DNA of 64,000 nucleotides from a virus: positions 30,549 through 94,548 of IMG/VR virus record IMGVR_UViG_3300028840_004626. One strand, given 5' to 3'. Below are positions 12,781-64,000 of the stretch, piece after piece. The translations under genes and the position numbers were made by a program. Below the pieces are notes generated by a model that saw only the letters and a list, made by a program, of their open reading frames with translations, was not told the DNA's origin and searched no databases. Each line of letters starts with the position of its first letter. Within the stretch, counting starts at the first letter, position 1.

Positions 12781-12794
12781 CTGGAGGTAGCTTA

Positions 12795-14024: not shown

Positions 14025-14026
14025 TC

Positions 14027-37308: not shown

Positions 37309-37320
37309 GGAGTCAATAAT

Positions 37321-41891: not shown

Positions 41892-41908
41892 ATGTAGGAG
41901 AAATAAGA

Positions 41909-46019: not shown

Positions 46020-47117
46020 ATGAGGCCTTTAAAACCAAATAGTCGTGGGGCATTCGTTCCCACACCCATGGCACTTCGACCAAGACGAAAAGAATCGCCA
46101 TTTTCAAAACCTTGCCAGGCTCTTGGCCACCTAGATAGAGTAATCAAGGGTGAGCCTCCCAGGATTTGTATTGTGCGCAGCAGGGGTGGTATTGGCGACG
46201 TACTAATGACAACTCCAACCGTCAAAGCTATTTCAAAAAAGTATAACTGCAAGGTTGACTATGCTACAGATTTTGAATATCTTGACGGAGCACTTCTCAA
46301 GGTGATGACGGGAAACCCATATGTGGGTCACATCTTTGAGCATCGAGAGCTAGACTTTCGCAAAGATGACTATAATGCAATTATTAATTTGACTTGCCCG
46401 TGTACCTCTCACGAGAAACCCTTGGCTCCGCCAGTTAATCGTATAGATCTGTTTGCCCGCCATGCAACTATTCCTCTTGAAGATACGTCAATGGATTTTG
46501 TTCTGAGCTCAGATGAGTTAGAGTGGGCCAGAAACTATATTTCTTCCCAGGGATTAAGCTCATATAAATTAATCATGGTGCAACCATCTTCTAGCAATAC
46601 AAGACGAGATGCGCCTGTTGCTACGATGAAGAATGCACTCACTGAAATCTTGGCTCACCACAAAGATATAAGGGCCTTGATTATTACCCATAGCAGTGAC
46701 AATACGCGTACAGAATGGAAATTTGCGGAGACTCATGTTTTACAAAATTTTGATGTTCGCCAGCTTGCCGCTCTTATGCATTATTGCGATCTGGTTTTGT
46801 GTCCAGATAGTGCGATTTTGCATGTCGCGTCAGCGTTCCATAAACCAACCGTCACCCTCTTCGGACCAACCGACCCGAGGGCACGAGTTAATTATCATCC
46901 CGAAGCCGTGGCTATTTGGCCCGGCAAAGAATTACACAACTACCCTTGCTGGTATGAAGACCCAAAAGATGGATATCTTTGTTGGAAGAGATTGGAGCCA
47001 AATGTTATAGCCGCTGCTTGCCTGGCGGTAATGAACAAAACCGATTTGCCCCCTTCTCGCGACCTGGTCACCTTTGGCCAATACAAGACATCTAATGAAT
47101 TCTATGAAATTTTATAG
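46020..47117 (+). CDS. Glycosyltransferase family 9 (heptosyltransferase-like)
   Basis: RGGIGDVLMTTP and DLVLCPDSAILHVASAFHKPTVTLFGPT signature motifs. Confidence 0.9.
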   Translation: MRPLKPNSRGAFVPTPMALRPRRKESPFSKPCQALGHLDRVIKGEPPRICIVRSRGGIGDVLMTTPTVKAISKKYNCKVDYATDFEYLDGALLKVMTGNPYVGHIFEHRELDFRKDDYNAIINLTCPCTSHEKPLAPPVNRIDLFARHATIPLEDTSMDFVLSSDELEWARNYISSQGLSSYKLIMVQPSSSNTRRDAPVATMKNALTEILAHHKDIRALIITHSSDNTRTEWKFAETHVLQNFDVRQLAALMHYCDLVLCPDSAILHVASAFHKPTVTLFGPTDPRARVNYHPEAVAIWPGKELHNYPCWYEDPKDGYLCWKRLEPNVIAAACLAVMNKTDLPPSRDLVTFGQYKTSNEFYEIL

Positions 47118-47125
47118 GAGAATAC

Positions 47126-48511
47126 ATGGACAACAAATTTGCCTTTGGCACCAACAAGCTGGTGATGCCCACCGGTTTATCTCAAAGCTTTAATTCTGTC
47201 AGCCAGCCCGTCACTAGTCAGCCCGCTAATATTCAGCCCCCTCGCAAGAAAAAGGTTCTGGTATGGTCAGACGCAGTTATTGCTACTACCGGATTTGGGG
47301 TAGTTTCAAAACACATTCTGAAAGCTCTACATGAGACAGGTCTATATGATATCGATCAGTTGGCAATTAATTACTTTGGCGATTTTGTAGACAAGTCGGA
47401 AGTCCCATATAGCATGGTGCCTGCCCGCCTCAACAATCCGAACGACCCGTATGGCAATCAGATGTTTTTGGATGCTATCGGCGCTAAGCCATATGATATT
47501 GTATTTGTTGTTAATGACACGTTTGTGGTCGAGGGGGTTTCTGCCCATATCAGCGAGATTAAGTCTAACAAGCTAAACTCGGGGCAACCAGTATTTGATT
47601 TGGTATATTATTTCCCTGTAGATTGTCGCTTCTTGCAGCGTGCTTCAACAATGGCCAAAGCGGCCGACCGCGCCGTGGCCTACACAGAGTTTGCGAAGCG
47701 CTCAGCAGAAGAGGCAGAGGTCAATGTAACGGACGTTATCTATCATGGCACTGATATAAAGAATTTTTTTCCAGTTCCTCCAGAGGTGAGGAACTTATGC
47801 CGGAAACGTTTCTTTAACATTGAGGACCCAGATCGCTTCATTCTCGTCAACGTCAATCGCAACAATAGTCGCAAAGACATCGCCAGAAGCATACTGGCCT
47901 TTAAGGAATTTAGAAAGCGTGTTCCTAATTCTGCCTACTATCTTCACACTAAAATGGTAGACTCCCCTGGGCATGGGCATGAAATTGACCTGGGTGTCTG
48001 CATTGAAGAGCTGGGACTTAGCACCCAGACGGATGTAATTTTTCCCAACGCTTTGCATCCGGCCAAGGGGTTTCCGATCGAGGTACTCAACCAGCTCTAT
48101 AACGCTGGTGATGCTTATTTCACAACCACCCTGGGAGAGGGATGGGGTTTAACTATCACTGAAGCGATGGCTGCAGGTATCCCAGTTATTGCTCCTAATA
48201 ACACGAGTATCCCAGAAATCCTGGGAGAAAATCTTGACCGGGGCTATGTATATCCATGCAAAGAACAGGTATATGTAGATAATAGCGGTTACCGTCCGTA
48301 TGGTTCGATGGAAGATATCGTCAATAGCATGATGCAATGTTATGAAGACTGGAAAACTCAGGCTCCGCGTCGACAAGAGATCGTCAGTCGCGCCAAAGAG
48401 TTTGTACACAAATATTCTTGGGAGCATATATGCAAACAATGGGTAACATTATTTGGAGAGCTTGGAAATGGCAACAATGCTAATTACCAGATGGAAGGGG
48501 AGATGATGTAA
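47126..48511 (+). CDS. Glycosyltransferase family 4 (GT-B)
   Basis: TGFGVVS, IYHGTD, NVNRNNSRKD, LYNAGD...GEGWGLTITEAMAAGIPVI. Confidence 0.9.
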   Translation: MDNKFAFGTNKLVMPTGLSQSFNSVSQPVTSQPANIQPPRKKKVLVWSDAVIATTGFGVVSKHILKALHETGLYDIDQLAINYFGDFVDKSEVPYSMVPARLNNPNDPYGNQMFLDAIGAKPYDIVFVVNDTFVVEGVSAHISEIKSNKLNSGQPVFDLVYYFPVDCRFLQRASTMAKAADRAVAYTEFAKRSAEEAEVNVTDVIYHGTDIKNFFPVPPEVRNLCRKRFFNIEDPDRFILVNVNRNNSRKDIARSILAFKEFRKRVPNSAYYLHTKMVDSPGHGHEIDLGVCIEELGLSTQTDVIFPNALHPAKGFPIEVLNQLYNAGDAYFTTTLGEGWGLTITEAMAAGIPVIAPNNTSIPEILGENLDRGYVYPCKEQVYVDNSGYRPYGSMEDIVNSMMQCYEDWKTQAPRRQEIVSRAKEFVHKYSWEHICKQWVTLFGELGNGNNANYQMEGEMM

Positions 48512-49644
48512 TGTCAGACCATCCCATAAAACTGAAATACGTCGGTGCAGTTGGCGATACTAGTGGATATGCAAATGCATGTCGCAACTATATCTGTGCG
48601 CTACTTGATACTAACGAGATAGACTTGTCGGTGGGTATCGCAAGTTTTGAGAAGACCAAAACGAGTCATGGTCCAGCCATGGAGCGTATTGCACCATATG
48701 TCAACCGCCCAATAAAGCCCAAGATTCAGATTACTCATCTTACCCCAGAGAATTATCCAGCATTTAAAACGCCTGGTGCATACAACATTGCATATACGGT
48801 ATGGGAAACTGAAATGCTGCCACATGGATGGGTTGACCTAATTAATAGTATGGATGAGGTATGGGTTCCTTCCGACTGGAATATTGAGATATTTAAGAAG
48901 AGCGGAATTAGGAAGCCCATGTTTAAGGTGCCTCATGTAATTCCTATCCCCTCTGGTGGTCACGCAAAACATGTGACGGTTCCTACTCAAGATAACGAAA
49001 CCTATGTGTTTTATTCAATCTTTCAGTGGATAGAAAGAAAAAATCCACTAGCTCTTTTAAGAGCCTATTTTACGGAGTTCGGCCCTAAGGACAATGTGTG
49101 TTTGGCCCTGAAGAGTTATCGACTAGATAGTTCTGCGCAAGAGAAGGCTATTGTTAAAGGCGATATCAAGACTTGCAAGCAGTCTTTGAACTTGCCGTAT
49201 TATCCTCCGGTAATTTTCTTTGGAGATCTGATGCCGGCTGAATATATTCATGGATTACATGAACGTGGTGATTGTTTTGTAATGGCCCAGCGTGGCGAGG
49301 GGTTTGGTATTCCTCATGCAGAAGCTATGGCTCATGGCAATCCTGTTATTGCTACTGGATATGGTGGCAATATGGAATTCATGAACAAAGAAACAGCTTT
49401 TCCAGTAGACTGTCAGCGAACACCAGTGGCCGGCATGATCTTTGCCAACTATCATGGCCATATGGTTTGGGCTGAACCCAATATTATGCATATGCGAGAG
49501 CATATGAGGTTTTGCTACGAGAATCGAGATAGGGCAAAAGATGTTGGTAAAACTGGCAGAGAATTTATTGAACACAATTACAGCTCTAAGGCGATTGGCA
49601 AACTCATGCTAGATCGTCTGAGAGAGATCGAGAAAGGACTATAG
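48511..49644 (+). CDS. Glycosyltransferase family 4 (GT-B)
   Basis: SGYANA, YTVWET, DEVWVPS, ERKN, RGEGFGIPHAEAMAHGNPVIATGYGG. Confidence 0.9.
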   Translation: MSDHPIKLKYVGAVGDTSGYANACRNYICALLDTNEIDLSVGIASFEKTKTSHGPAMERIAPYVNRPIKPKIQITHLTPENYPAFKTPGAYNIAYTVWETEMLPHGWVDLINSMDEVWVPSDWNIEIFKKSGIRKPMFKVPHVIPIPSGGHAKHVTVPTQDNETYVFYSIFQWIERKNPLALLRAYFTEFGPKDNVCLALKSYRLDSSAQEKAIVKGDIKTCKQSLNLPYYPPVIFFGDLMPAEYIHGLHERGDCFVMAQRGEGFGIPHAEAMAHGNPVIATGYGGNMEFMNKETAFPVDCQRTPVAGMIFANYHGHMVWAEPNIMHMREHMRFCYENRDRAKDVGKTGREFIEHNYSSKAIGKLMLDRLREIEKGL

Positions 49645-49645
49645 C

Positions 49646-51226
49646 ATGGATACTGGACTAATATATACAGGCGAAGACCACGAAGGTAACTGGTTTTATA
49701 ATCGATATTACTATGGTGGTTCTAATTCTCGGTATTATACGTTTCAGTTGGCCATGAATTTACTTAATCAACGTCATGATTGTCCTACCATTATTGAGAC
49801 CGGGTGCCAGAGGCAAGAAGAAGATGTGGGCGCAGGGATGTCTACCAGTATTTTTGCTGAATATGTTGATAGATATGGTGGGCATTTAATTGCTGTTGAT
49901 AACGATACTACTCATCTGGCTCGTGCCGCAACCTTTGTTCAAAAGTGGCCTAATGCCAGCGTTAAATTAGTGCCATCTGACTCTGTTAAATTTCTCGAAT
50001 GGTATGATGGTCCATGCAACCTTCTTTACCTAGATAGCCTTGATTATCCTATTGCAGAGAATCTTGGCAATCAACAGATGCAGCAAGATGCCCAACAACA
50101 TTGTCTGAAGGAATTTAAGGCTATCGAGGACAAGCTAGACCCCAAAGCTATTCTGCTTATTGACGATAACCAGCTAGGTGGCGGCGGCAAGCCCCGAGCC
50201 CTAAAGGAATATATCGTCGAAAAGGGCTGGATATACGAAGTAAAGATGTTCCATGAGCTTGGACACGAGGTGTTCTCTCCTGGGGCCTATGTGGAACCAG
50301 CGAATCCTGGAGACGCCACATTGCGACCAGCTATACCTGGACTTATATATGATCCAGATATCGTCAAACAATTTCATGAAATCGGAGCGCGGCACCCAGG
50401 GGAAGATGCTAAAAATTATCTCACCAAAGAATTTGTGGATAATTTTGACTGCATTATCGTAATGCACATGCCCAGGTGGATTGCTGGCAATTGGCCTGAA
50501 ATCAAGCATAAAAGAGTAATCTGGAGAACTATCGGCCAGTCTGTTTCTACTACCGAACAAGAGTTGGCCCCTTACCGAAAGAGGGGTATGGAGATTGTTC
50601 GTTATTCGCCCAAAGAGCGAAATATTCCGGGGTATATAGGGCAGGATGCGCTGATTCGTTTCTATAAAGACCCGGCTGATTATGGGCCCTGGAATGGTAA
50701 TAATAAAAGAGTCATTACATTTGCTCAGAGCATGAAACAGCGCGGGCCCGCATGTAGTTTCGATTTCTTTGAGGAAGTAACGCGCAAATTTCCTCGACAT
50801 CTTTATGGTCCGGGCAACGAGGGCATAGGCCCATGGGCTAGTGGCAAAGTGTCCTATGACCAACTCAAAGAGGAGATGCGCTGCAACAGGGTATACTTCT
50901 ATACGGGAACACATCCCGCCAGCTATACGCTCAACTTTATTGAGGCGTGGATGACCGGCATCCCGATTGTTGCGCTTGGTCCAGAACACGGCAATGCCTC
51001 ATATTTCCCCGGCCATGATCTTTATGAAGTTACAGACCTGATTCAAACGCATTACAGTGGGTTTGTATCTGATAACCCGTATGAGCTCCAGGGATATATC
51101 CAAATGCTACTCGACAATGATGATATCGCTAGTTTAATCAGTACACAGGGTCGCCAGATGGCTATCCACCACTTTGGCAAGGACAGGATCTACAAATCTT
51201 GGCAAGAGTACCTGGGAGAATCATAA
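49646..51226 (+). CDS. Fused class I SAM methyltransferase plus GT-B glycosyltransferase
   Basis: N-half IIETGCQR..DSVKFL..LLYLDSLD..ILLIDD (methyltransferase); C-half YTLNFIEAWMTGIPIV...GFVSDN (GT-B); abrupt junction near 50230. Confidence 0.8.
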   Translation: MDTGLIYTGEDHEGNWFYNRYYYGGSNSRYYTFQLAMNLLNQRHDCPTIIETGCQRQEEDVGAGMSTSIFAEYVDRYGGHLIAVDNDTTHLARAATFVQKWPNASVKLVPSDSVKFLEWYDGPCNLLYLDSLDYPIAENLGNQQMQQDAQQHCLKEFKAIEDKLDPKAILLIDDNQLGGGGKPRALKEYIVEKGWIYEVKMFHELGHEVFSPGAYVEPANPGDATLRPAIPGLIYDPDIVKQFHEIGARHPGEDAKNYLTKEFVDNFDCIIVMHMPRWIAGNWPEIKHKRVIWRTIGQSVSTTEQELAPYRKRGMEIVRYSPKERNIPGYIGQDALIRFYKDPADYGPWNGNNKRVITFAQSMKQRGPACSFDFFEEVTRKFPRHLYGPGNEGIGPWASGKVSYDQLKEEMRCNRVYFYTGTHPASYTLNFIEAWMTGIPIVALGPEHGNASYFPGHDLYEVTDLIQTHYSGFVSDNPYELQGYIQMLLDNDDIASLISTQGRQMAIHHFGKDRIYKSWQEYLGES

Positions 51227-51957
51227 TGAAAGGCATTGTTTTGGCAGGTGGAATGGGTACACGCCTAGCCCCATTAACAAGAAATGACAACAAACATCTC
51301 TTGCCGGTCTATAACAAGCGTATGGTAGAGTATCCCGTTAATACACTGGTTGAGGCAGGTATTGATGAGATCGTATTAATCACTGGGGGTAAACGCCCTG
51401 GCGCATTTCTTGAGCTATTTCGTAACGGGCAAGACCATGGTGTCAAGAAGTTCTATTATGCTTACCAAACAGGCAATGGTGGCATTGCTGATGCGTTAAA
51501 GCTAGCTGAGCCTTTCTGTGACAAAGAGCCGTGCGTAGTTATCTTAGGGGATAATTATTTTGAGGATGGCATTGAAGACCAGGTGGCGCTTTGGTGGCGC
51601 GCTGAGGCATGTATGGGGGCCGGATGCATACTGAAGCCCACAGAGACACCATGGCATTTCGGTATTGCGGAAACAGATGGGGGCAAGATAGTCTCCATTG
51701 AAGAGAAGCCCAGTGAGCCCAAATCCGACCAGGCCATTTTGGGATGCTACTTTTTTGATCGCACAGTATGGGATATCCTCCCATCGATTAAGCCTTCCGC
51801 GCGTGGCGAGCTAGAAATTACTCATGTCCTCGAAGAGTACATGAAGCAAGACAAGCTAGAAGCCTATGGTTATGACGGTTACTGGTCTGATATGGGCACG
51901 TTTGAGACATGGACAGAAGTTTCTCAGAGGATTGCAGATCGATGTCAAAAGTCCTAA
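51226..51957 (+). CDS. rmlA: Glucose-1-phosphate thymidylyltransferase (RmlA/RfbA-like)
   Basis: MKGIVLAGGMGTRLAPLT..NKHLLPVY, ILGDN, IEEKP, KPSARGELEIT, WSDMGT; start refined to ATG 51226 (TAATG overlap). Confidence 0.9.
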   Translation: MKGIVLAGGMGTRLAPLTRNDNKHLLPVYNKRMVEYPVNTLVEAGIDEIVLITGGKRPGAFLELFRNGQDHGVKKFYYAYQTGNGGIADALKLAEPFCDKEPCVVILGDNYFEDGIEDQVALWWRAEACMGAGCILKPTETPWHFGIAETDGGKIVSIEEKPSEPKSDQAILGCYFFDRTVWDILPSIKPSARGELEITHVLEEYMKQDKLEAYGYDGYWSDMGTFETWTEVSQRIADRCQKS

Positions 51958-52919
51958 TTACAGGCGTAGCTGGATTTATTGGATATAATCTGGCCAAACT
52001 AATGATGGCTCGTGGATACGAGGTTGTCGGTATTGACAATTTTGACCCATATTATGATCCCACGATTAAACATCGACGAATCAAGAATCTAACAAACAAG
52101 AAATATTATTTTACGGATGGTTGTTATTTCCACTTTTACAGAATTGATATTAGAAATCAGGAATCGATTAGCTGGTTAATGAATGAGTATAAATTTGATG
52201 GAGTTATTCATTTGGCAGCCCTGGCGGGGGTTCGACCTTCATTACAAAGACCAGCCGATTACATGGATGTTAATGTTAGGGGCTCCACTATTCTTCTGGA
52301 GCAATGCCGGCTTCACGGCATCAAGAATGTGGTAGTTGCCTCATCTTCATCCGTTTATGGAGACAGAGTGACAGGGGCTTGTCTTGAGTCTCTTATCTGT
52401 ACGCATCCAGAATCTCCTTATGCGGCCAGCAAAAGAGCCATGGAGCTAATCTGCGATAATTTTAGTCGCTTATACGATATGGACATCAAGGCCTTGAGAT
52501 ATTTCACGGTATATGGTCCTGGCCAGAGGCCAGAGATGGCTATCCATCAATTTATTCGCAAGGCCATGTTAGGTGAGGAAATTACACTGTTTGGAAGCAT
52601 GGAGTCTAAAAGGGATTACACATATATTGATGATATCTGTGAGGGTACTTTAGCTGCCTATAGGCATACTCCCGGCGGGTTTTCAATTTTTAATTTAGGG
52701 AATAATAGGCCTATTGAACTGATCGATTTAGTTTTTGCAGTGCACCATCATACAGGCAAGGAGCTTAATCTAAAGTGTCTTCCTAAGCAGCCGGGTGATG
52801 TTCATGCAACGTGGGCTCATCCAGGCTTGGCCCTCAAGGAGCTTAATTGGGAGGCCACTACCCCATTTGAAGAGGGCATGCGTCTTACGTCCGAGTGGGC
52901 GAAGGAGAAATACCAATGA
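51942..52919 (+). CDS. NAD-dependent nucleotide-sugar epimerase (UDP-glucuronate 4-epimerase-like)
   Basis: TGVAGFIG, IHLAALAGVRPS, ASSSSVYG, PYAASK, LRYFTVYGPGQRPEMA, RDYTYIDDI; start refined to ATG 51942. Confidence 0.85.
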   Translation: MSKVLITGVAGFIGYNLAKLMMARGYEVVGIDNFDPYYDPTIKHRRIKNLTNKKYYFTDGCYFHFYRIDIRNQESISWLMNEYKFDGVIHLAALAGVRPSLQRPADYMDVNVRGSTILLEQCRLHGIKNVVVASSSSVYGDRVTGACLESLICTHPESPYAASKRAMELICDNFSRLYDMDIKALRYFTVYGPGQRPEMAIHQFIRKAMLGEEITLFGSMESKRDYTYIDDICEGTLAAYRHTPGGFSIFNLGNNRPIELIDLVFAVHHHTGKELNLKCLPKQPGDVHATWAHPGLALKELNWEATTPFEEGMRLTSEWAKEKYQ

Positions 52920-53857
52920 TTCTTGTAACTGGATCTGCAGGATTTATCGGATCAAACCTCTGTTACCACCTTGTTAATGATCTTGGGGCCGATGTGATCG
53001 GCATCGATAAGCTAGGCCCCGAGTCCAATAGGGGTTGGACTGAGCCCCTTGAGGCTGGACCTGGTGGCAAAAGAATGATATTTCGCCCAGTGAACTTGTG
53101 CGAGTATCATCCAGTAAAGAGATTATTCGAAGAATATCCTATTGAGCATGTAATTCACTTGGCTGCTGAGTCTCATGTGGATCGGAGCATCACCAACCCA
53201 TCCTCTTTTTGGATGTCTAACGTGATTGGCACAGAGCACCTACTGCATGCGTGCCATAAGTTTGGGGTCAAAACAGTCATCAACCAAATTACGGACGAGG
53301 TATATGGAGAACGCCCAGATGATCCAGCATGTGAAGGGGATGCGTTTGCTCCCACTTCACCCTATCCATGTTCCAAGATGGCCCAGTACTATGTAGGGAA
53401 AAGTTATCATACGACCTATGGACTACCCGTAATGTCAACTTTTCCTGTCAACTGTTATGGGCCACGCCAGTTTCACGAGAAGCTGATTCCCAAGTTCATC
53501 ACCAAGTTGATGGAAGGTGAGAAGGTACCCCTAATGGCCTCAACGCATTTTGAACGTGACTGGCTGCCAGTGGAGGACATGTGTAAGGCGCATTCCACAC
53601 TAATCAGTAAGGGTGTCCCAGGAGAAGATTATAATGTAGGGGCTTTTAATCATCACACCAATATGCAGATTACCCACAAGTTATTAGATCTGTGTGGGCG
53701 AGATGAAAATGCCATTGAAATTGTACCGGATCGCAAAGCACACGACTCGAGGTATGCGGTGACCAATCAGAAAATGAAGGATCTTGGGTGGGCCGTGACA
53801 TATGATTTCGATGACTATTTGGAATATACAGTGGAGTGGTATCGTGAACAACTTTAA
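52916..53857 (+). CDS. rmlB: dTDP-glucose 4,6-dehydratase (RmlB/RfbB-like)
   Basis: TGSAGFIG, HLAAESHVDRSI, TDEVYG, PYPCSK, YGPRQFHEKLIP, DRKAHDSRY; start refined to ATG 52916. Confidence 0.88.
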   Translation: MILVTGSAGFIGSNLCYHLVNDLGADVIGIDKLGPESNRGWTEPLEAGPGGKRMIFRPVNLCEYHPVKRLFEEYPIEHVIHLAAESHVDRSITNPSSFWMSNVIGTEHLLHACHKFGVKTVINQITDEVYGERPDDPACEGDAFAPTSPYPCSKMAQYYVGKSYHTTYGLPVMSTFPVNCYGPRQFHEKLIPKFITKLMEGEKVPLMASTHFERDWLPVEDMCKAHSTLISKGVPGEDYNVGAFNHHTNMQITHKLLDLCGRDENAIEIVPDRKAHDSRYAVTNQKMKDLGWAVTYDFDDYLEYTVEWYREQL

Positions 53858-55598: not shown

Positions 55599-55600
55599 GG

Positions 55601-56779
55601 ATGATTAGCGTATGTTGTTGTATTTTTAATGCTAAATGGGATGTGCAGACTCTCATTGAGGCGTGTGAATATCATAACGACCCGGCAGAATTTGAGATTG
55701 TGGTAACCCTGGATGACCGGGTAGAAGATGGCTCTCTAGAATTATTGCGCGACCTGCAGACGAGATATGATAACCTAAAGGTAGTCGTTCACACTGACGA
55801 GGATACTATCGAATATATGTCGGCTGCTCTGGATTATTATCATCGACGACAATTTTTCAATGAGGAGATTCGCGTTGGTATGCGTGATGCGTTAGAGAGA
55901 TACAAGAAAGGCGAGCTGCTTAATAAGAGCAAGGCTTTTCTGTGGCAAAGCTCAGGGATCTTGTATAACAAAGCCGTAGAGGCATCTAGTGGCGATGTCA
56001 TTCTCGTTACCCCGGGAGACTTCCTGTATCTTTTTGGATTGGGCAACCTAGAAAGGTTCGTGAGAAAACATGCCATAGGGGATATATTTTATGCATCGCC
56101 CCCTGCCATATGGGCAAGAGTTAATAATATGGACCCGGAGTGGCTCAGGAGGCATATTAACGAGGTGCACAATGATGCTCAAAAGGCACGCCCAGGTTTT
56201 CGCTGGGATAGTCGAGAAACCTTTAGAGATTACTTGCGATATCCTCCACAATTATCCGATTTCAATTTGCCAGATTTTCGTAATAACCGTATGATCAACT
56301 TTACAGATCCTGATTTTCTCGACAAATCTCGCCAGTTCTGTATCGAATCTATGACTCAGGGCGGGGTTCAGTGCAATCCTAAGTTTCATGGGTGTCATGT
56401 GATGACGCGAAAGACCTTCGAGATGATTGGTGGATTTACTGAGGAGTGGATTCATCGCGCCTTTCCAGATGACAAGATGACTTACCTGGGTTCTAGGATC
56501 GGTGGACATACAGAACTTCCCCCACAATTTGCTTTTGCCTGGCTTGGCAATGGAGAGTTGTTGCCTGGCCACGGGCCGGGATATGAAGATGCCTGGAAGG
56601 TGGAGCTGCCAAAGGTAGATCCATTATGGGATAAACATCCAATACCCCCTCGGGTTCACAAAGTATATTTACACGACAAGATTGTAAAAGAGAAACATAT
56701 GAATGACCTGGTGCGCAAAAGCTTTGGTACTAATACTCCACCGATAAGGATAGGAACATGCAAAAGGATCGACTCTTAA
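55601..56779 (+). CDS. Glycosyltransferase family 2-like
   Basis: ISVCCCIFN, FEIVV..D..EDGSLELL, YNKAVEASSGDVIL, FEMIGGFTEEW; DxD position reads PGD. Confidence 0.75.
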   Translation: MISVCCCIFNAKWDVQTLIEACEYHNDPAEFEIVVTLDDRVEDGSLELLRDLQTRYDNLKVVVHTDEDTIEYMSAALDYYHRRQFFNEEIRVGMRDALERYKKGELLNKSKAFLWQSSGILYNKAVEASSGDVILVTPGDFLYLFGLGNLERFVRKHAIGDIFYASPPAIWARVNNMDPEWLRRHINEVHNDAQKARPGFRWDSRETFRDYLRYPPQLSDFNLPDFRNNRMINFTDPDFLDKSRQFCIESMTQGGVQCNPKFHGCHVMTRKTFEMIGGFTEEWIHRAFPDDKMTYLGSRIGGHTELPPQFAFAWLGNGELLPGHGPGYEDAWKVELPKVDPLWDKHPIPPRVHKVYLHDKIVKEKHMNDLVRKSFGTNTPPIRIGTCKRIDS

Positions 56780-57660
56780 TTCTATCTAATCACTATAGGC
56801 GCAGTGCGTTTTTTGAGGATACAATACGGCTGCTATATGATGCCGGATACCAGAATGTCTGGATTCAGGATACTGGCCATGAGACATGGGGGCCCTATCA
56901 GGGGCCCAGTCGGATATATGATAAGCCAGGACATTATACGTATGACTCTGGCATGGTTAATTTGAAAAACCAGATCCCGCGAGGGTCTGGCCCATGCGAC
57001 GTAATTCTATTTATTGACAACGACTGTTTCCTAAATAATCTAGATAATTTTCAAACCTATTTGCAAGAATTTTTGGATGGAGGATATGATTATGCATGCC
57101 ATTTTGCCCATCCCTGTTATTACAAAAATTATAGGTTTGAAGGCAAAGAAATCTTGCCCGTTAACAACCAGACTTTTCATCCGTCTGATGACAAGCCGGG
57201 TTTTGCTCCAGATCCACACTGGGAAAATGCGTATATGCTTATCGCCAAGTCAACATGGGATGCCCTAACCCCACAGGAAATGTCACATGGTAGACTATGG
57301 ACTAGGGGATTGGTTCGGACAGGGGCGCGATTGGGTACACATAGCTGCAAATATAAGTTATCGTTTAGTCACTTTGGGCCTGGATGGTTCCATGTGGGCA
57401 ACCTGATGGGCACCCATATTGCTTTGGAAAAGATGATTAAGGTGGAACGAAAATTTAATCCTGAGTCGCGCATGAATATGGCTCGCTTAGGCTATTTTAT
57501 TGTTCAAAGGGACATATATGGCAAAGACATATATCCCAAGTACATTAATGGCAACCTTAATCAGATTATCAAAATGGTTGGGGGCAGGCAGATAGCAATA
57601 GACGCATGGGAACAGCTAGTATCTGGAACTTGTATGGAACACTGGGAGAAATTGTCATGA
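56758..57660 (+). CDS. Putative GT-A-fold glycosyltransferase, unclassified family X copy 1
   Basis: VILFIDNDCFL DxD motif after a beta-strand, WFHVGNLM; paralog of 62198..63097. Confidence 0.55.
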   Translation: MQKDRLLILSNHYRRSAFFEDTIRLLYDAGYQNVWIQDTGHETWGPYQGPSRIYDKPGHYTYDSGMVNLKNQIPRGSGPCDVILFIDNDCFLNNLDNFQTYLQEFLDGGYDYACHFAHPCYYKNYRFEGKEILPVNNQTFHPSDDKPGFAPDPHWENAYMLIAKSTWDALTPQEMSHGRLWTRGLVRTGARLGTHSCKYKLSFSHFGPGWFHVGNLMGTHIALEKMIKVERKFNPESRMNMARLGYFIVQRDIYGKDIYPKYINGNLNQIIKMVGGRQIAIDAWEQLVSGTCMEHWEKLS

Positions 57661-58775
57661 AACAGAATATTCCCCTTTTTAAAGTTAGAATGACTGGTGG
57701 TGCAGCGGAAGCCGTGAAGGCGACAGTAGAGTCTGGCTGGATTGGGCAGGGGCCTCGAGTAGAGGAGTTCGAAAGGGGCTTGGTGGACTATATTCAATAC
57801 CCCCATCTGGTTACGTTAAACAGCGCCACATCTGCATTGCAGCTAGGGCTCAGATTGGCTGGCGTGAGGCCGTATGACCAAGTTCTAAGCTCACCCCTGA
57901 CTTGTTTCGCAACCAACACTCCGATATTAGCTAGCCATGCAACAATTAAATGGGCCGATGTGGACCCGCAGACCTGTAATATTGACATCGACGATGTGGT
58001 CAAGAAAGTGTCAGATGATACAGCGGCCATATTGTTTGTTCATTGGGGTGGTGTGCCCGTGGACGTAGAACAATTGGTTAGTAGAGTAACTGATAAATTG
58101 GGCAAGTGTCCTCCTATCATTGAGGATTGTGCTCATAGCATGGGCAGTTATTATAAGGGCGGCACTCATCACGTAGGCACCAATGGTAATTTTGGGGCTT
58201 TTTCTTTCCAGGCCATCAAACACCTGACAACAGCAGATGGAGGGATGTTGACTATGGCCCCCGAATTTCATAGACGGGCTAAGCTAATGCGCTGGTACGG
58301 AATTGATCGCGATAACCCTAATAAAAAGGATTTCCGCAGCGAACTGCCTGTTGAGGAATGGGGATATAAATTTCATATGAATGATGTCGCTGCGGTAATG
58401 GGCATCGAAAATCTTAAAACTCTCGATGAGGCCGTAGATCGACATCGTGACAATGCAGCATATTATGATCAGGAGCTCAGGGGTTTAGATGGGTTGGGCT
58501 TTTTTGATATTCCAGAAGGCTCGCGTCCCGCATATTGGTTATATACGATGAAGGTAGAACGTCGCGAAGACTTCATGAGGCATCTTAGGGACCATGGCAT
58601 TGTTGCAAGCAGAACACATGAACGCAATGATATTCATCCATGTGTAGAAAGATTCCAGGTTGAGCTGCCCAAATTAGATTCCTTTAATACGAAGGTGTGT
58701 TGTATCCCGGTGGGGTGGTGGGTATCTGATGAAGACCGCGAATATATTGTTGAGGTAATCAAACAAGGATGGTAA
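57657..58775 (+). CDS. DegT/DnrJ/EryC1/StrS-family PLP sugar aminotransferase
   Basis: GPRVEEFE, NSATSAL, IIEDCAHS, FSFQAIKHLTTADGGM (Schiff-base Lys); start refined to ATG 57657. Confidence 0.93.
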   Translation: MKQNIPLFKVRMTGGAAEAVKATVESGWIGQGPRVEEFERGLVDYIQYPHLVTLNSATSALQLGLRLAGVRPYDQVLSSPLTCFATNTPILASHATIKWADVDPQTCNIDIDDVVKKVSDDTAAILFVHWGGVPVDVEQLVSRVTDKLGKCPPIIEDCAHSMGSYYKGGTHHVGTNGNFGAFSFQAIKHLTTADGGMLTMAPEFHRRAKLMRWYGIDRDNPNKKDFRSELPVEEWGYKFHMNDVAAVMGIENLKTLDEAVDRHRDNAAYYDQELRGLDGLGFFDIPEGSRPAYWLYTMKVERREDFMRHLRDHGIVASRTHERNDIHPCVERFQVELPKLDSFNTKVCCIPVGWWVSDEDREYIVEVIKQGW

Positions 58776-59611
58776 TGAAGCGGTTTGATTATGTATATAT
58801 TCTGTGTATTTGGCCAGGACGCAACCGCGTATTACATACAGCGCGTGCCCACATGAACTTCTTGCGCCAATATGAATATCTCAAGGACCGGGTCTACCCA
58901 AGATTCGTAGACGCAAGAGTCAAGACCACGGGAGACAAGAGTGTTTTGCTAGTTGTAGCCATACGTGGAGACTTGTGTCCAGATTACGAGAGGCAGGTCC
59001 AGGAAGCTTTCGATGGCCTATGTATGCCAAGCAATATTCATCTCAAAGTTGTACGTCATACCAATTGGGGAGGCACCATAGGTAGTCTCTGGGATGTATG
59101 GAAGGATGTGCTCAAGGGTAAAATTGTTTCTCAATATGTGAGTGTGTCTGAAGACGACTACATAAGCAGCAACTGGTCTTTGCGGGAACGATTATTAGAA
59201 CTGGGGTATATCTATGTGGGCATGATTTTATCACAGAAACATTGTGGCCACCTATATTGGGTTAGCAAGCATGGCTATCGGACTTTGCATCGGAATGATC
59301 GACCTGTTATTGGCAATGCCCTGAATTTTATACACGCAAAATACGGGTATGAGAACCTGGACTGGACAGACGGGGGTTTTTATTTTATGAAATATGAGTC
59401 TCTTCAGGCGATTGAGAACAAGATTGGCATATTTACCAAGGCCCCAAAGGACAAACCCTATAACCATACTCGTGATGGGATGTATTTTGGCGAAGCAGGT
59501 TTTCCAACAGAATTACAGGCTGCCGGATTTAAGATTATAGGTCTGGGCCCGGAATCACATCGCCCTTATCGCAATTTGGGCAGGGCTCCAGAGCTATTTT
59601 TTAGGATTTAA
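58775..59611 (+). CDS. Putative GT-A-fold glycosyltransferase, unclassified family Y copy 1
   Basis: NWGGTIGSLWDVW, YVSVSEDDY acidic motif, WTDGGFYFMKY, GEAGFPTEL; paralog of 60148..60984. Confidence 0.5.
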   Translation: MKRFDYVYILCIWPGRNRVLHTARAHMNFLRQYEYLKDRVYPRFVDARVKTTGDKSVLLVVAIRGDLCPDYERQVQEAFDGLCMPSNIHLKVVRHTNWGGTIGSLWDVWKDVLKGKIVSQYVSVSEDDYISSNWSLRERLLELGYIYVGMILSQKHCGHLYWVSKHGYRTLHRNDRPVIGNALNFIHAKYGYENLDWTDGGFYFMKYESLQAIENKIGIFTKAPKDKPYNHTRDGMYFGEAGFPTELQAAGFKIIGLGPESHRPYRNLGRAPELFFRI

Positions 59612-59612
59612 A

Positions 59613-60161
59613 ATGTTCCATGATGGAGACCTATACATACGACCAGTGGTTCGAGATGACCTAGATTTCTTAAGGTATCTACGCAGTGATCCCGCTGTAT
59701 GGAGTCAACTAGGAACCCTTGTGGCCCCTACCGAGGCTAGCCAAGAGGCATGGCTGTCATCACTTAAGGATTCGAGGAAGCAATATCACATCATTGCATC
59801 GGACAAATTTGTCTATCCGGTAGGCTTAGCGCGCATGGATGAAATTGATCACCAGAATCGATCTATACGAATTGGTGCTGATATTGCTAAGGAATTTCGT
59901 GGCCAGGGCCTTGGGACCCAGACCTACAATCTGCTTTTGAGATATTGCTTTGATTTTCTCAACATGCATCGTGTCTGGCTAGCCGTAATGAACACGAATG
60001 CTATTGCGTTGGGACTATACAAGAAGATGGGTTTTCGAGAAGAGGGACGACAAAGGGATGCCATTTTCCGTAATGGTATTTATAATGACTATATCCTTAT
60101 GTCGATACTCGAGGATGAATATCGAGCAGAAATTCAACAGGAAAAAGATGCTAAGGCGTAA
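59613..60161 (+). CDS. GNAT N-acetyltransferase (PseH/RimJ-like)
   Basis: FRGQGLG acetyl-CoA motif, YCFDFLNMHRVWLAV..N..A..LYKKMGF.EEG; near the aminotransferase. Confidence 0.88.
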   Translation: MFHDGDLYIRPVVRDDLDFLRYLRSDPAVWSQLGTLVAPTEASQEAWLSSLKDSRKQYHIIASDKFVYPVGLARMDEIDHQNRSIRIGADIAKEFRGQGLGTQTYNLLLRYCFDFLNMHRVWLAVMNTNAIALGLYKKMGFREEGRQRDAIFRNGIYNDYILMSILEDEYRAEIQQEKDAKA

Positions 60162-60984
60162 ATATCATTATGTTTATATGACATGTATATTTGCAGGATC
60201 TCGCCGGGGGGCAGGCAATGTGCGTCGCCACCTGCAGTTTGTATGCAATTACAACCATCTTCAGGATGGCAAGAAGCGGGTGTTGTTCGTGGTGTCAGTT
60301 CGTGGTGATCACGAAGAATATGAGAGGCAGGTTACCCAGGCTTTGTTTGAAGAAAATACTCGTCCCGACTACGTAGATATTGTTTGCCTCAAGGATGAAA
60401 ACTGGGGTATGCTAGTTGGTGCACTATGGGATACATGGAGATTTCTCAAGAAAGAAAATATCAAGTCTAAGTACGTGCTGGCATGTGAGGATGATTGGCT
60501 GTTTAGTCACTGGCCCCACAGGGCACGCCTTCTCAAGCGCAAGGGATATATATATGTAGGCATGTTTAGTTACATTAACATGAAGAGGGAACCACTGAAA
60601 TATGCGCGCTACCTACAAAACGGGGTTAAGGAAAGTCGGTGTGATGGCGGTTGGGGTCGCGTTGTTACTCACTTTAAGCCCAACAAGAGGATATGGACGG
60701 ATGGCGGATTGTATTTCATGAAGTACGACGCCCTACAAAAAATGGAAGATGCCATGGGGGTATTTACGAAAGCGCCACGTCACTTTGACAAGGGAATACA
60801 CGGAGTGGACTTTGGGGAAGTTGGTTTCCCAACCGAGCTCCATCACTTAGGATTCAGATTTCGTGCCTTTACGGAGGCGTATGAGGTATTTGATGGCTTT
60901 AGGTGGGTGGACATGTCTAGTTGGCGAATTAAAGGCCAGATCCCATCCTATCTTTTAGAGGACAGAACCAATGAACTTATGTAG
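60148..60984 (+). CDS. Putative GT-A-fold glycosyltransferase, unclassified family Y copy 2
   Basis: NWGMLVGALWDTW, YVLACEDDW, WTDGGLYFMKY, GEVGFPTEL; start refined to ATG 60148 by alignment with its paralog. Confidence 0.5.
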   Translation: MLRRKYHYVYMTCIFAGSRRGAGNVRRHLQFVCNYNHLQDGKKRVLFVVSVRGDHEEYERQVTQALFEENTRPDYVDIVCLKDENWGMLVGALWDTWRFLKKENIKSKYVLACEDDWLFSHWPHRARLLKRKGYIYVGMFSYINMKREPLKYARYLQNGVKESRCDGGWGRVVTHFKPNKRIWTDGGLYFMKYDALQKMEDAMGVFTKAPRHFDKGIHGVDFGEVGFPTELHHLGFRFRAFTEAYEVFDGFRWVDMSSWRIKGQIPSYLLEDRTNELM

Positions 60985-61513
60985 TTCATACCGAGAGAAT
61001 AACTACGGCCAACTGATTCAAAGTCTGGTGGCCCTTTATAATCCAGAGATGGTAGTTGAGTTTGGCATCTTGGGGGGATACAGTCTAAACTGCATTCTTG
61101 ATGCAGTAGAGCCAGAAACCATTGTAAGGGCATATGATATCTTTGACGATTATCAGTATAGGCACGCCGACTATAAATATCTTTATGATAGATATGGCGA
61201 AATCATCCAGTATGGCGATTTTTATCAACACTATAAAGATATGCCCAACAATAGCGTAGACCTTTTCCATATTGATGTATCTAATGATGGTCGTACATAC
61301 CAAGTCTTTTTTGATCACTATATGGATAAGCTAACTGATAATGGAATTGCTCTATTGGAGGGCGGTACAGAAGAGAGAGATAAGGGATGGATTAAGTCAT
61401 ATGGGCACCCGCCCATTGTTCCTGTCTTGATTGAGTGCCCCTATGAGCACTTTGTATTTAATCCATTTCCAGGACTAACTGTGGTCAAGAAACAACTCAG
61501 GGAGGCAAAATGA
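60971..61513 (+). CDS. Class I SAM-dependent methyltransferase
   Basis: VVEFGILGGYSL, AYDIF, VDLFHIDVSN, LLEGG; paralog of 55011..55598. Confidence 0.8.
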   Translation: MNLCSSYRENNYGQLIQSLVALYNPEMVVEFGILGGYSLNCILDAVEPETIVRAYDIFDDYQYRHADYKYLYDRYGEIIQYGDFYQHYKDMPNNSVDLFHIDVSNDGRTYQVFFDHYMDKLTDNGIALLEGGTEERDKGWIKSYGHPPIVPVLIECPYEHFVFNPFPGLTVVKKQLREAK

Positions 61514-62214
61514 ACTATTTTATTTCTTATCCGCGTTCGGGGCGCATTTGGCAAGAGCATCGAATGAAGCTTTTTCTGGAGAAGAATTATAATATCTTTC
61601 AGGAAACCTTTCCTGGTGTATTTCCTCCTGAGGCCCCCGTCGGGCCCAAGCATGTCTGGAATTGCCTAAGTCAGATACTTGTTGGATCGCATATTGGTTT
61701 TGCTCCAGTGGGCGGCAGCGGAGTGATGAGATTTGCTATGCCCCTTAAAAAGAACAAGGATATCGCATATGTCCTTCTTAGGGATACGCAGAAATCAGTA
61801 GTATCTCATTATTATTATCTCAAAAATCGTAAGAATGCGCTGGGCGGAAATATACCCACCGAATTGAACCAGTTTATTACGAGCGAGGAGTATGGCGTTT
61901 TACGGTTTTGTCGTTACTGCGAAAAGATTAATCAGCTTAAGCGCATGGTCAAGGAAGTCAGGTTTATTTACTACGAGGATGCTTCAGATAGAGAGTTTAT
62001 TTATAATATCCCAAAAATGATGGGCCTAGAAGATTATGTTCCTACTGACGAAGAAATAGACTATGTCTATCAAAACAGTATTGCTAAGGTGAACACCTCT
62101 GGGACCAAACACGAGTTGGGCGACGAAGTTGTGGATTACATACATCGTACCCTAAAAAAGAACTGTCAGCTTGAGGAATACAGAGAGAGGTATATTGATG
62201 TCGTCTCCAAATAA
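61510..62214 (+). CDS. Sulfotransferase-like protein 2
   Basis: FISYPRSGRIW, LRDTQKSVVSHYYY, IYYED; C-terminus CQLEEYRERY matches copy 1 (CKLQQYRERY). Confidence 0.75.
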   Translation: MNYFISYPRSGRIWQEHRMKLFLEKNYNIFQETFPGVFPPEAPVGPKHVWNCLSQILVGSHIGFAPVGGSGVMRFAMPLKKNKDIAYVLLRDTQKSVVSHYYYLKNRKNALGGNIPTELNQFITSEEYGVLRFCRYCEKINQLKRMVKEVRFIYYEDASDREFIYNIPKMMGLEDYVPTDEEIDYVYQNSIAKVNTSGTKHELGDEVVDYIHRTLKKNCQLEEYRERYIDVVSK

Positions 62215-63097
62215 TGTTCTGGTGTTTTCTAATCATCATCGTCGCAGCCTATATTTCGAAGATACGTGTCAGTTACTTTGGGACAATGGCTATCGCAACC
62301 TTTGGATTCAGGATACGGGGAACAAATCATGGGGGCCATACGCTGGACCCTGTAGCCAATATATTGATATGGGTAGGCCATCAGTATCGTACGATGGCGG
62401 CATGATGAATTTTAAGGCAATTACTGATCATCATAAAAATGATCTCAACTATGATTGTCTATATTTTATTGACAATGACCTGTTCCTAACTAATGTTGAC
62501 GAGCTTCAGGGGTATATCGATGAATTTCGCGAAGGTGACTATGATCTGGTTTGTCACCTAGTATCTAAAAAGCAACAAGATGACTATTCGTTTGAAGACG
62601 GCCGTGTGATTAGTCATGTGCCAGAAATTGATTTTGTACACGGTGATGTTGTGCCTGCTCCTACTCCGCACTGGCAGACTACACACTGGCTAATGAGTCG
62701 CAGGCTCTGGGATGCCCTACAGGTCGATGAGGTAGGGCACCATCGCAAACTGGTTTATGCCGCACACAAGCTAGGGGCTAAATTTGGATCACATTATGCG
62801 AACTATAGAGACAAATTGACTGCTTGGGGCGAGGAATGGTTTCATATTGGCAATTTAATGCTGTATTATTATCATGTTGAAAACGCTTCGATTCATAGAT
62901 GTCGGACAGACAAGCCCTCTGACATGTTTAGGATTGGCTATTTTGCAGCGCAAACTAGAGCCTATGGAGATGAGATTTATCCGCAACATATCCGCAACAA
63001 TCTGAGGCAGGTATACAAACATATGGGTGGTCGCAATGCGGTGTTGGGTTTATGGGATAAGTGGACTGCAAGCACATGCATGGAGTATAAGTCATGA
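62198..63097 (+). CDS. Putative GT-A-fold glycosyltransferase, unclassified family X copy 2
   Basis: SNHHRRSLYFEDT, WIQDTG, LYFIDNDLFL, WFHIGNLM; start refined to ATG 62198. Confidence 0.55.
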   Translation: MSSPNNVLVFSNHHRRSLYFEDTCQLLWDNGYRNLWIQDTGNKSWGPYAGPCSQYIDMGRPSVSYDGGMMNFKAITDHHKNDLNYDCLYFIDNDLFLTNVDELQGYIDEFREGDYDLVCHLVSKKQQDDYSFEDGRVISHVPEIDFVHGDVVPAPTPHWQTTHWLMSRRLWDALQVDEVGHHRKLVYAAHKLGAKFGSHYANYRDKLTAWGEEWFHIGNLMLYYYHVENASIHRCRTDKPSDMFRIGYFAAQTRAYGDEIYPQHIRNNLRQVYKHMGGRNAVLGLWDKWTASTCMEYKS

Positions 63098-63903
63098 AAT
63101 TTTCTGATGAACTATGGCAAACTAAGTGGGCGCCAAAAGGTGCTCCCATGGGCGGGCTAAAGGGGTACAAATATCCGGTTATTAATCCTGAATTTAGAGA
63201 TCATGGCTACGGGTGCGACAACTGGAGACTCGGAGCATTATGGCTAGCTTCATTATGTGAGGGTGCTGGAGATTATTTTAAAGAAGGGGTGACTATATTT
63301 GATTACGGGAGTGGCTCTGGGCGATTAGCCAATTTTGTGAGTGGCCACCTGAAAGATTTTACTTATTATGGTGCAGAACCCCAGGGGGCCGGCAAATGGA
63401 CCCCGTCTAAGCGACAACCCGCATTGCCCTGGGGACAGAGAAGCATCGAAAAGGGCCGAGAACTGCTGGGGCACGATGATCGTGTGCAATTTGGTTATAC
63501 CGACACACCCTTTGAAGATGAAGCGGTAGGAAGTGCAGATATTGCTATTCTGGGCAGTGTGTTTACCCACTTATTGCCCAATGAAGTCAGGCGGATCTGC
63601 GACAAATTATTGCCCATTATACATCGTGGCGGCGCTGTTGTTTTTTCGGTATTTTTAACCAATGGACAGGAGCAGAACATCAAGGTCAAATCTTCCGGCA
63701 GAGCGGAAGGTATATATGTTAAGGGGCAAGACGGGGCCTATGGCACTAGTGGGTGCTATGCTATGACCTGGTTTCCATATAAGTGGTTTGTGCAGTATGC
63801 TGCCCAAAATGATATTCAATTATCAAAAACGAGCACATTTTTGCACAATGAAAACTGCCCATGGTTAACCCACCATATACTACGACTGGAGAAAAAGGCA
63901 TGA
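63094..63903 (+). CDS. Class I SAM-dependent methyltransferase
   Basis: IFDYGSGSGRLA, YYGAE, SVFTHL, GGAVVFS. Confidence 0.85.
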   Translation: MKFSDELWQTKWAPKGAPMGGLKGYKYPVINPEFRDHGYGCDNWRLGALWLASLCEGAGDYFKEGVTIFDYGSGSGRLANFVSGHLKDFTYYGAEPQGAGKWTPSKRQPALPWGQRSIEKGRELLGHDDRVQFGYTDTPFEDEAVGSADIAILGSVFTHLLPNEVRRICDKLLPIIHRGGAVVFSVFLTNGQEQNIKVKSSGRAEGIYVKGQDGAYGTSGCYAMTWFPYKWFVQYAAQNDIQLSKTSTFLHNENCPWLTHHILRLEKKA

Positions 63904-64000
63904 AACGGATTGTTTTCTTTTTGCATTATCGCGGTGGATCTACGCTATTTCAACATCTAGTCAGCACTACTCCCTTCTTCGCATTGAGCGACGAAGAGCT
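63900..64000 (+). CDS. 3'-truncated ORF, probable third sulfotransferase
   Basis: Manual translation from ATG 63900 (ATGA overlap): MKRIVFFLHYRGGSTLFQHLVSTTPFF...; RGGSTL fits the R-[ST/G]-G-[ST]-T 5'-PSB loop. Only 33 codons visible. Confidence 0.55.
   Translation, partial: MKRIVFFLHYRGGSTLFQHLVSTTPFFALSDEE

Follow-up and report, generated by a model that had tools for sequence, protein, structure and literature searches.

Virion glycosylation in mycobacteriophages reportedly involves few glycosyltransferases (GTs). That phage GTs carry it out is known (Freeman 2023, as cited in PMC12619734 and PMC12801897), and, as outlined there for phages Che8, Corndog and Myrna, soluble GTs encoded with the structural genes O-glycosylate virion proteins in the cytoplasm, namely capsid and tail tube proteins at their C-termini. 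Here we describe an island of glycan-synthesis and glycan-decoration genes in an uncultured large phage from marine or sediment metagenomes. The island begins at position 46020 of the window, by which we mean the whole 64,000-nucleotide stretch analysed (bases 30549-94548 of the single 94,548-bp virus contig IMGVR_UViG_3300028840_004626, called G000 alongside its relatives G001 to G006). Like those mycobacteriophages, this phage encodes soluble GTs together with structural genes; unlike what is outlined for them, its island carries about nine GT domains, its own deoxythymidine diphosphate (dTDP)-aminosugar pathway, methyltransferases and sulfotransferases, its host is marine, and its candidate acceptors lie on the baseplate or fibre side of the particle.

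Giant viruses make 4-amino-4,6-dideoxyhexose with N-acetylation (viosamine). The island resembles the Mimivirus fibril clusters and chlorovirus PBCV-1 A064R (PMC9614988) in its virus-autonomous nucleotide-sugar synthesis, fused GT/methyltransferase domains and clade-specific clusters; giant viruses have eukaryotic hosts and belong to a different realm, and the likeness is limited to shared enzyme families. The same review does not mention sulfotransferases, which the phage island contains. The cyanomyovirus S-SCSM2R has 13 GTs and 22 cell-wall genes (PMC12801897), so the size of the island is not unprecedented: giant-virus scale, as claimed in an initial annotation of this DNA, is fair for gene number but does not set the island apart from published phages. 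The clusters of S-SCSM2R, S-SCSM1 and P-SSM2 likewise belong to large marine myoviruses and hold many GTs, nucleoside diphosphate (NDP)-sugar epimerases and RmlC, mostly soluble and of predicted function. They also include Kdo genes and the export protein PgaA (PMC12801897), whereas the island has no export gene, forms one block joined to the tail module, and possesses a GT9-GT4-GT4 head and sulfotransferases. O-antigen and capsule loci dependent on Wzx/Wzy or ATP-binding cassette (ABC) exporters, and Gtr cassettes, use the same nucleotide-sugar and GT families, but the membrane parts that define them (initiating transferase, flippase, polymerase or exporter, GtrA/GtrB/GtrC) are absent from the island. 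Phage virion glycosylation, large cyanomyovirus GT clusters and autonomous glycan synthesis by giant viruses are already known. New in a tailed phage are the conserved three-enzyme head joined to a swappable cassette of at least 15 kb, the sulfotransferases (with an adenosine 5'-phosphosulfate (APS) kinase in a relative), the lack of membrane steps in complete relatives, and a candidate acceptor motif.

We found 20 complete open reading frames (ORFs) at 46020-63903, all on the + strand and either overlapping or separated by at most 8 bp, and a 21st, opening at 63900 with an ATGA overlap, that the contig end truncates. The window ends where the contig ends, and the earlier remark that the operon continues past the window therefore means that the contig is cut there. 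Six island ORFs lack a Pfam match, and internal BLAST comparison resolved the poorly annotated ORFs into three paralogue pairs, designated families A (54265/61510), B (56758/62171) and C (58769/60148). Genes are named below by their first position.

46020-47117, + strand: GT9-fold glycosyltransferase, trio gene 1, candidate priming enzyme (PF01075)
47126-48511, + strand: GT4 (GT-B) glycosyltransferase, trio gene 2 (PF00534, E 6.7e-13, 49 bits)
48511-49644, + strand: GT4 (GT-B) glycosyltransferase, trio gene 3, paralogue of 47126 (PF00534, E 4.8e-11, 42.9 bits)
49646-51226, + strand: fusion of a Methyltransf_24 domain (about residues 62-174; PF13578, E 4.4e-7) with a 344-residue GT-B-type part
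51199-51957, + strand: RmlA-type glucose-1-phosphate thymidylyltransferase (PF00483, E 2.6e-51; TIGR01207/01208, E ~3e-54, under the equivalog cut-off)
51909-52919, + strand: short-chain dehydrogenase/reductase (SDR), GalE-like NDP-sugar 4-epimerase or reductase (PF01370, E 1.6e-59; TIGR01179 galE, E 1e-47)
52895-53857, + strand: RmlB-type dTDP-glucose 4,6-dehydratase (TIGR01181, E 2.3e-82)
53802-54272, + strand: small protein with a weak glyoxalase/VOC-fold match (PF13669 and PF00903, E 2e-4 to 7e-4, below cut-off)
54265-55011, + strand: sulfotransferase of the 3'-phosphoadenosine 5'-phosphosulfate (PAPS) type, family A (motifs, profile, AlphaFold2 (AF2) model)
55011-55598, + strand: Methyltransf_24 S-adenosylmethionine (SAM)-dependent methyltransferase, paralogue of 60971 (PF13578, E 2e-6)
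55601-56779, + strand: candidate GT2-like glycosyltransferase, a weak call (PF00535, E 2e-4, N-terminal 65 residues only)
56758-57660, + strand: GT-A-like glycosyltransferase, family B (no Pfam match; ESM Atlas, FIDND motif)
57606-58775, + strand: DegT/DnrJ/EryC1 sugar aminotransferase (PF01041, E 2.2e-75; PseC, LegC and DesI-type matches)
58769-59611, + strand: GT-A-like glycosyltransferase, family C (no Pfam match; EDD motif)
59613-60161, + strand: GNAT N-acetyltransferase, PseH-like (PF13302, E 2.1e-16; TIGR03585, E 2e-17)
60148-60984, + strand: GT-A-like glycosyltransferase, family C (ESM Atlas structural neighbours)
60971-61513, + strand: Methyltransf_24 methyltransferase (PF13578, E 6.6e-8)
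61510-62214, + strand: PAPS-type sulfotransferase, family A, paralogue of 54265 (motifs, member of the family A profile)
62171-63097, + strand: GT-A-like glycosyltransferase, family B (40% identical to 56758, E 1e-73)
63094-63903, + strand: probable class I SAM methyltransferase, a weak call (PF08242, E 0.01; DYGSGSG SAM motif)
63900-64000, cut, + strand: 21st gene, N-terminus like a sulfotransferase PAPS-binding loop by motif alone, FFLHYRGGSTLF

These assignments bear out most of the initial annotation, which had listed at least 21 coupled genes. Its RmlA, RmlB, epimerase, aminotransferase and acetyltransferase were all matched by Pfam or NCBIfam models. Its roughly nine candidate GT domains are plausible, comprising the GT9, two GT4s, the GT-B part fused to a methyltransferase, the weak GT2 and the two GT-A-like paralogue pairs, with two of these calls weak or indirect; its four methyltransferase domains correspond to three Methyltransf_24 domains and the weak 63094. 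Two of its three sulfotransferases (54265 and 61510) were confirmed, but the third is a 33-residue start judged by motif only. The tail genes that it placed next to the island are there as well: baseplate, virion and tailspike genes lie upstream, no intergenic gap exceeds 30 bp from 43978 onward, and a promoter and terminator scan found nothing above chance to separate the island from them. Chance does not account for the island: the family matches are significant, they fall in a single co-directional block, and relatives carry that block too.

We identified at least 58 IMG/VR relatives through the major capsid protein. Two of the 58, G002 (194,631 bp) and G003 (191,113 bp), are complete, with terminal repeats; because they measure 191-195 kb, we take the contig to be about half of a jumbo-type myovirus genome of ~190 kb, and CheckV puts its completeness at ~50%. 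Comparisons were made with G001, G002, G003 and G005 and, in some cases, G004 and G006. The whole structural module is conserved in the first four of these (tblastn synteny), and an island occupies the same place, after the fibre genes, in five relatives (G001, G002, G003, G005 and G006). The GT9-GT4-GT4 trio is common to four (G001, G003, G005 and G006); complete G002 lacks the GT4 pair and carries its GT9 in tandem. After the trio every relative differs, each having its own co-directional block of ~10-25 kb. The G001 island encodes three aminotransferases, LbH acetyltransferases, a B12/radical-SAM enzyme, a GFO/IDH/MocA oxidoreductase, RmlD-like SDRs, methyltransferases and a GT2, and the islands of G002, G003 and G005 encode many methyltransferases, GT2s, RmlC, DegT and an ATP-grasp enzyme. 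The architecture thus pairs a head of three conserved genes with a tail that can be swapped.

The first gene of the head, GT9 46020, scored 59.9 bits against PF01075 (gathering cut-off 22), and it has orthologues in all six relatives (G001 to G006) among 240 homologues on contigs of up to ~205 kb. Its AF2 model (predicted local distance difference test score, pLDDT, 87.7) has a GT-B fold that Foldseek matched to 3tov (E 1e-14), then to 1psw (WaaF), WaaC and TibC; the model is that of a bona fide GT9 fold. This fold does not tell the acceptor, because 3tov, WaaF and WaaC rank alongside TibC. Equivalog models of lipopolysaccharide (LPS) heptosyltransferases all scored far under their cut-offs (for example, 44 versus 185 bits). 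TibC and AAH (PMC4358343) are likewise GT9-like GT-B enzymes that act in the cytoplasm, where they O-glycosylate Ser residues on a beta-helical protein, and TibC matches the fold of the phage enzyme at a template-modelling (TM) score of ~0.55. However, TibC is a dodecamer with an N-terminal beta-barrel and a four-Cys iron finger (PMC4358343), whereas TibC was missing from the PDB matches of the clade GT9 profile (3tov, WaaF and WaaC), and the AF2 model of GT9 46020 contains no N-terminal barrel. By TibC relationship, four-Cys finger and beta-barrel, GT9 46020 is not a member of the BAHT group (TibC/AAH). The GT9s of G002 and G003 carry C-x2-C-x4-C-x5-C at the finger site.

The GT9 orthologues of G001 and G005 (L093:7353-9479 (-) and L101:11959-13920 (-)) are interrupted, precisely at the C-terminal Cys motif, by an insert of ~340 residues that has intein-like ends and contains LAGLIDADG-type motifs. 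An intein within a glycosyltransferase is unusual, and the presence of the insert in both relatives points to a strongly conserved gene and site. Inteins are also found in the primase and a 698-residue protein of G003 (Pfam Intein_splicing). For the other two genes of the head, profile searches of the PDB gave chlorovirus B736L (3oy2) as the best match, with E 1.8e-16 for 47126 and E 5.4e-8 for 48511. Their orthologues in relatives are 41-58% and 39-55% identical, respectively, and both genes weakly match PF20706 ('GT4 in conflict systems'), below the cut-off.

Several lines of evidence identify family A as sulfotransferases at the level of sequence and model. Proteins 54265 and 61510, which are 27% identical (BLASTP E 6e-22), carry PKCGRTW and PRSGRIW at the 5'-phosphosulfate loop and ALRDA and LLRDT as RD-type 3'-phosphate motifs. 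A word-indexed homologue search with family A returned only the query itself, and a full-library HMMER search found 153 relatives; the single-sequence Pfam score was below cut-off (17.6 versus 22 bits), and a profile built from 31 relatives matched estrogen sulfotransferase (1aqu) in the PDB at E 1.9e-32. The AF2 model of 54265 (pLDDT 87.6) matched sulfotransferase folds with probability 1.00 at all ranks listed (1-50). The nearest solved enzymes are small-molecule SULT, Teg and StaL. In the closest relative the island closes with a gene for an APS kinase (G001:C1:3690-4202, L092, - strand; PF01583, E 1e-37), although no sulfotransferase motif was recognised in that island. We found no published description of phage sulfotransferases within a glycan operon; the literature places them only in lists of auxiliary metabolic genes.

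The remaining enzymes belong to the variable part of the island. The dTDP-amino-dideoxyhexose set of RmlA, RmlB, DegT aminotransferase and GNAT is complete in one operon. At the level of enzyme families the predicted chemistry is clear: a dTDP-6-deoxy-4-keto-hexose branch leading to an N-acetylated amino-dideoxyhexose, at most nine transfers, O-methylation and O-sulfation. The C-terminal 344 residues of 49646-51226 have 2108 homologues, up to 73% identical, some with PF00534 or PF13524. Stand-alone homologues of this GT-B part, at 60-73% identity on metagenome contigs of up to 207 kb, are far more conserved than the trio. The methyltransferase and GT-B parts, fused in frame here, are separate adjacent genes in G006. 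Alignment of 49646 or 55601 with glycosyltransferase profiles by hhalign gave weak matches. Families B (56758/62171) and C (58769/60148) carry DND or EDD motifs and, on structural comparison, look like GT-A-like enzymes. ESM Atlas features and structure linked 56758 to phage clusters and GT2, and the ESM Atlas neighbours of 60148 include GT31/Fringe-type, GT2 and phage glycosyltransferases at TM 0.55-0.66; single-sequence PDB searches with both families returned nothing real. The two family C proteins are 36.5% identical (E 3e-46), the second being compared over its longest ORF, which opens at 59998; its likely start is 60148, and the ESM Atlas entry begins at residue 51.

The initial annotation had called the island fully soluble and free of any flippase, Wzy, ligase or initiating transferase, and our searches agree with both statements. 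A hydropathy scan detected no hydrophobic segment in any island ORF, even at a lax threshold, and complete G002 and G003 encode no polytopic membrane protein; their hydrophobic segments are confined to small ORFs with 2-3 each and to large virion proteins. The same two results speak against the Gtr cassette membrane proteins GtrA, GtrB and GtrC. We also ran six-frame family searches on five records, two of them complete (G000, G001, G002, G003 and G005), in which control genomes gave matches. There was no match to the initiating transferases PF02397 (Bac_transf) and PF00953 (Glycos_transf_4), and no valid match to PF01943 (Polysacc_synt/Wzx), PF04932 (Wzy_C) or PF01061 (ABC2_membrane). A Wzx signal from PF14667 at G001:C1:20721-21161 and G005:C1:43011-43463 was rejected, the proteins being soluble cupins of 146-150 residues of the FdtA/RmlC type. 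That PF14667 (Polysacc_synt_C), a membrane domain, scored above the Pfam cut-off on soluble cupins appears to be a quirk of the model that may produce false flippase calls. Nor are export or polymerase genes, which the initial annotation had named as evidence that would count against it, seen just downstream in relatives: the G001 island is followed by a PD-(D/E)XK nuclease and a primase-helicase, and that of complete G003 by an intein-bearing protein and a primase.

What the glycan is attached to is a question on which these observations bear indirectly. The best reading, which we hold tentatively and at somewhat short of an even chance, is that the acceptor is virion proteins, glycosylated in the cytoplasm. 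This reading draws on the late structural position of the island, a Ser-Gly (SG) excess in one baseplate-side protein, and analogy. It is favoured because the island closes the late structural block in every relative, with unbroken packing and no promoter signal above chance, and because the complete relatives are devoid of membrane steps. It is further favoured because the GT9-fold enzyme TibC glycosylates Ser in the cytoplasm (PMC4358343), because both GT4s are nearest to chlorovirus B736L among solved structures, and because the intein-like insert marks the GT9 of G001 and G005 as strongly conserved. The remaining argument concerns the following protein, which we regard as a lead only.

17633-20095, + strand: baseplate-side virion protein, candidate acceptor (Ser-Gly excess)

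This protein contains 17 SG dipeptides where 5.5 are expected (3.1x), mostly as x-S-G-[VILT], and only 4 GS. The ratio is 2.8x, 3.0x and 1.9x in the orthologues of G001, G005 and G003, all of which bear the trio, and 1.25x in that of G002, which has no GT4 pair, against a background of ~1.15. The SG excess thus follows the GT4 pair across relatives, which favours a virion acceptor.

A number of points weigh against this reading. The SG contrast hangs on the single relative without a GT4 pair, and the acceptor of chlorovirus B736L is itself not known (PMC9614988). In both sequence and fold, TibC is a more distant match to GT9 46020 than are 3tov and the LPS heptosyltransferases, and in place of TibC's four-Cys finger GT9 46020 has two Cys only at the site. 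Missing membrane genes do not prove a cytoplasmic or protein acceptor, because soluble GT4, GT2 and GT9 enzymes also use host-made lipid-linked intermediates; moreover, about half of this phage's own genome is absent from the contig, and for that part the export searches cover the relatives. Finally, comparable large cyanomyovirus clusters have been published as host-surface modifiers (PMC12801897).

The main rival explanation, less likely in our view, is one in which the soluble enzymes alter undecaprenyl-linked O-antigen, capsule or core intermediates of the host and host machinery exports them. Remodelling of this kind could block superinfection or keep progeny from sticking to debris. GT9, GT4 and GT2 are classic families of LPS and exopolysaccharide synthesis, source annotations call the GT9 an 'ADP-heptose:LPS heptosyltransferase', and its fold matches are led by 3tov, WaaF and WaaC. 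Four unique beta-helix or pectate-lyase-like tailspikes upstream of the island suggest that the host is probably encapsulated, and a variable cassette could track host glycan types. However, with nine GT domains plus a full nucleotide-sugar pathway, the island looks suited to making a glycan de novo more than to editing one, and it ends the late structural block instead of lying among early genes. With no initiating transferase, flippase, polymerase, ligase or ABC exporter in the five records, the host would need to initiate and export a largely new glycan; host Wzx and Wzy are usually substrate-selective, which counts against envelope remodelling. Less probable again is some other soluble acceptor, such as a non-virion phage or host protein, a small molecule, or a free oligosaccharide serving as a decoy, a signal or a means of interfering with defence. 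The solubility evidence fits this equally well, and the resemblance of family A to small-molecule SULT, Teg and StaL is in keeping with it; the PF20706 matches on both GT4s might be too, but they fall below cut-off, nothing in the island looks like a carrier or scaffold gene, and the place beside the fibre genes in every relative and the SG pattern point to virion proteins instead. DNA hypermodification, an alternative raised in the initial annotation, supposes that the GTs glycosylate hydroxymethylated phage bases and so evade restriction. We consider this very improbable: no thymidylate-synthase-type hydroxymethylase (PF00303; dCMP-hydroxymethylase) was found in the five records, including our contig and both complete relatives, and the late structural location, sulfotransferases, methyltransferases and nine GT domains are unlike known DNA systems. 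A search for Tet/JBP (PF12851) gave no match, and the controls likewise gave none. Phage GTs that build di- or oligosaccharides on DNA are nevertheless known (Pyle 2024, as cited in PMC12619734), as is arabinosylation in RB69 (PMC6024577).

If virion proteins are the acceptor, a pathway can be proposed. RmlA and RmlB would produce dTDP-4-keto-6-deoxyglucose, which the DegT aminotransferase and the GNAT would convert to an N-acetylated amino-dideoxyhexose, and the SDR may supply a second, epimeric or reduced sugar. On the baseplate or fibre side, the GT9-GT4-GT4 trio would start the glycan on Ser of freshly synthesised virion proteins; the variable enzymes (the GT-B fusion, one GT2-like and four GT-A-like enzymes) would extend it, and four SAM methyltransferases and two or three PAPS sulfotransferases would decorate it. 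The particle would thus gain a methylated and sulfated glycan coat that differs from strain to strain; the island that makes it would presumably be expressed late and work wholly in the cytoplasm. In its fullest form this proposal is that a widespread clade of ~190-kb marine and sediment myoviruses builds a trio-primed Ser-Gly O-glycan on baseplate or fibre proteins and diversifies it between strains with a hypervariable cassette, which here would add an N-acetyl amino-dideoxyhexose, O-methyl groups and sulfate esters, giving the first sulfated and the first giant-virus-scale coat on a tailed phage; we put it forward as a speculative possibility, less secure than the choice of acceptor.

The genes upstream of the island include four consecutive ORFs of 689-801 residues at 35068-43978. 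Three of the four have beta-helix or pectate-lyase-like signatures, and 39486-41891 has no Pfam match. We found no homologue of any of the four in the relatives and therefore regard them as variable tailspikes, probably a set of swappable depolymerases that would imply several receptor types. Two small ORFs separate them from an actin-like gene, after which the island starts 9 bp downstream.

44970-46010, + strand: actin-like protein, Volactin family (PF25216, E 1.6e-57)

Orthologues of this protein, 52-71% identical, occupy the same place in G001, G002, G005 and G006, but not in G003. Volactin homologues of ~34% identity also occur on 11 other IMG/VR viral contigs that have nothing else in common with this phage. 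The Volactin match had prompted the idea of a haloarchaeal virus, which was rejected: the proteome is not acidic or halophilic (median isoelectric point 5.6), and the Volactin family is therefore not confined to haloarchaea.

All 76 retained ORFs lie on the + strand, and no tRNA gene was found in the window. RmlB relatives in GTDB genomes gave no lead to the host. By PHROGs assignment, a large terminase, portal, major head protein and tail sheath are encoded upstream of the window, and a baseplate wedge and several virion structural proteins within it. The terminase is nearest (~30% identity) to those of the jumbo myoviruses Moorella MTATph1, Bacillus 0305phi8-36-like phages and Acinetobacter ME3; the moraphage lineage (PMC12619734) was rejected as a home for the phage, being a separate T4-related group. 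Between terminase and portal lies the gene for a 511-residue protein (contig 12684-14219, L001) that lacks a family match and is kept in all relatives. No other protein on the contig has several hydrophobic segments; this one has four, and it may be an ejection or internal protein. The stretch is present in two public sequencing runs, from sediment (2018) and seawater (2021), in which the contig stops at the same base; no RNA run is listed as containing it. Searches for sequence beyond the contig end gave no DNA match among phage GenBank records, no match in single-protein scans of IMG/VR with the last ORF, the GT9 or a GT4, and no match among metagenome contigs to an exact 41-mer of the contig end or to a family B protein.

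Should the virion prove to carry the glycan, tailed phages would be able to build complex, sulfated, strain-variable coats without membrane machinery, at a scale known so far only in giant viruses of eukaryotes. Such coats would be relevant to the adhesion of marine phages to particles and mucus, to their avoidance of decoys or grazing and to the variation of their surfaces, and the island would supply a soluble set of protein-glycosylating and glycan-sulfating enzymes for glycoengineering. If the host envelope is the target instead, the island would be a large example of surface conversion by a lytic phage that relies on host exporters. Under either reading, the conserved three-gene head and swappable tail found across many relatives make the acceptor question testable.

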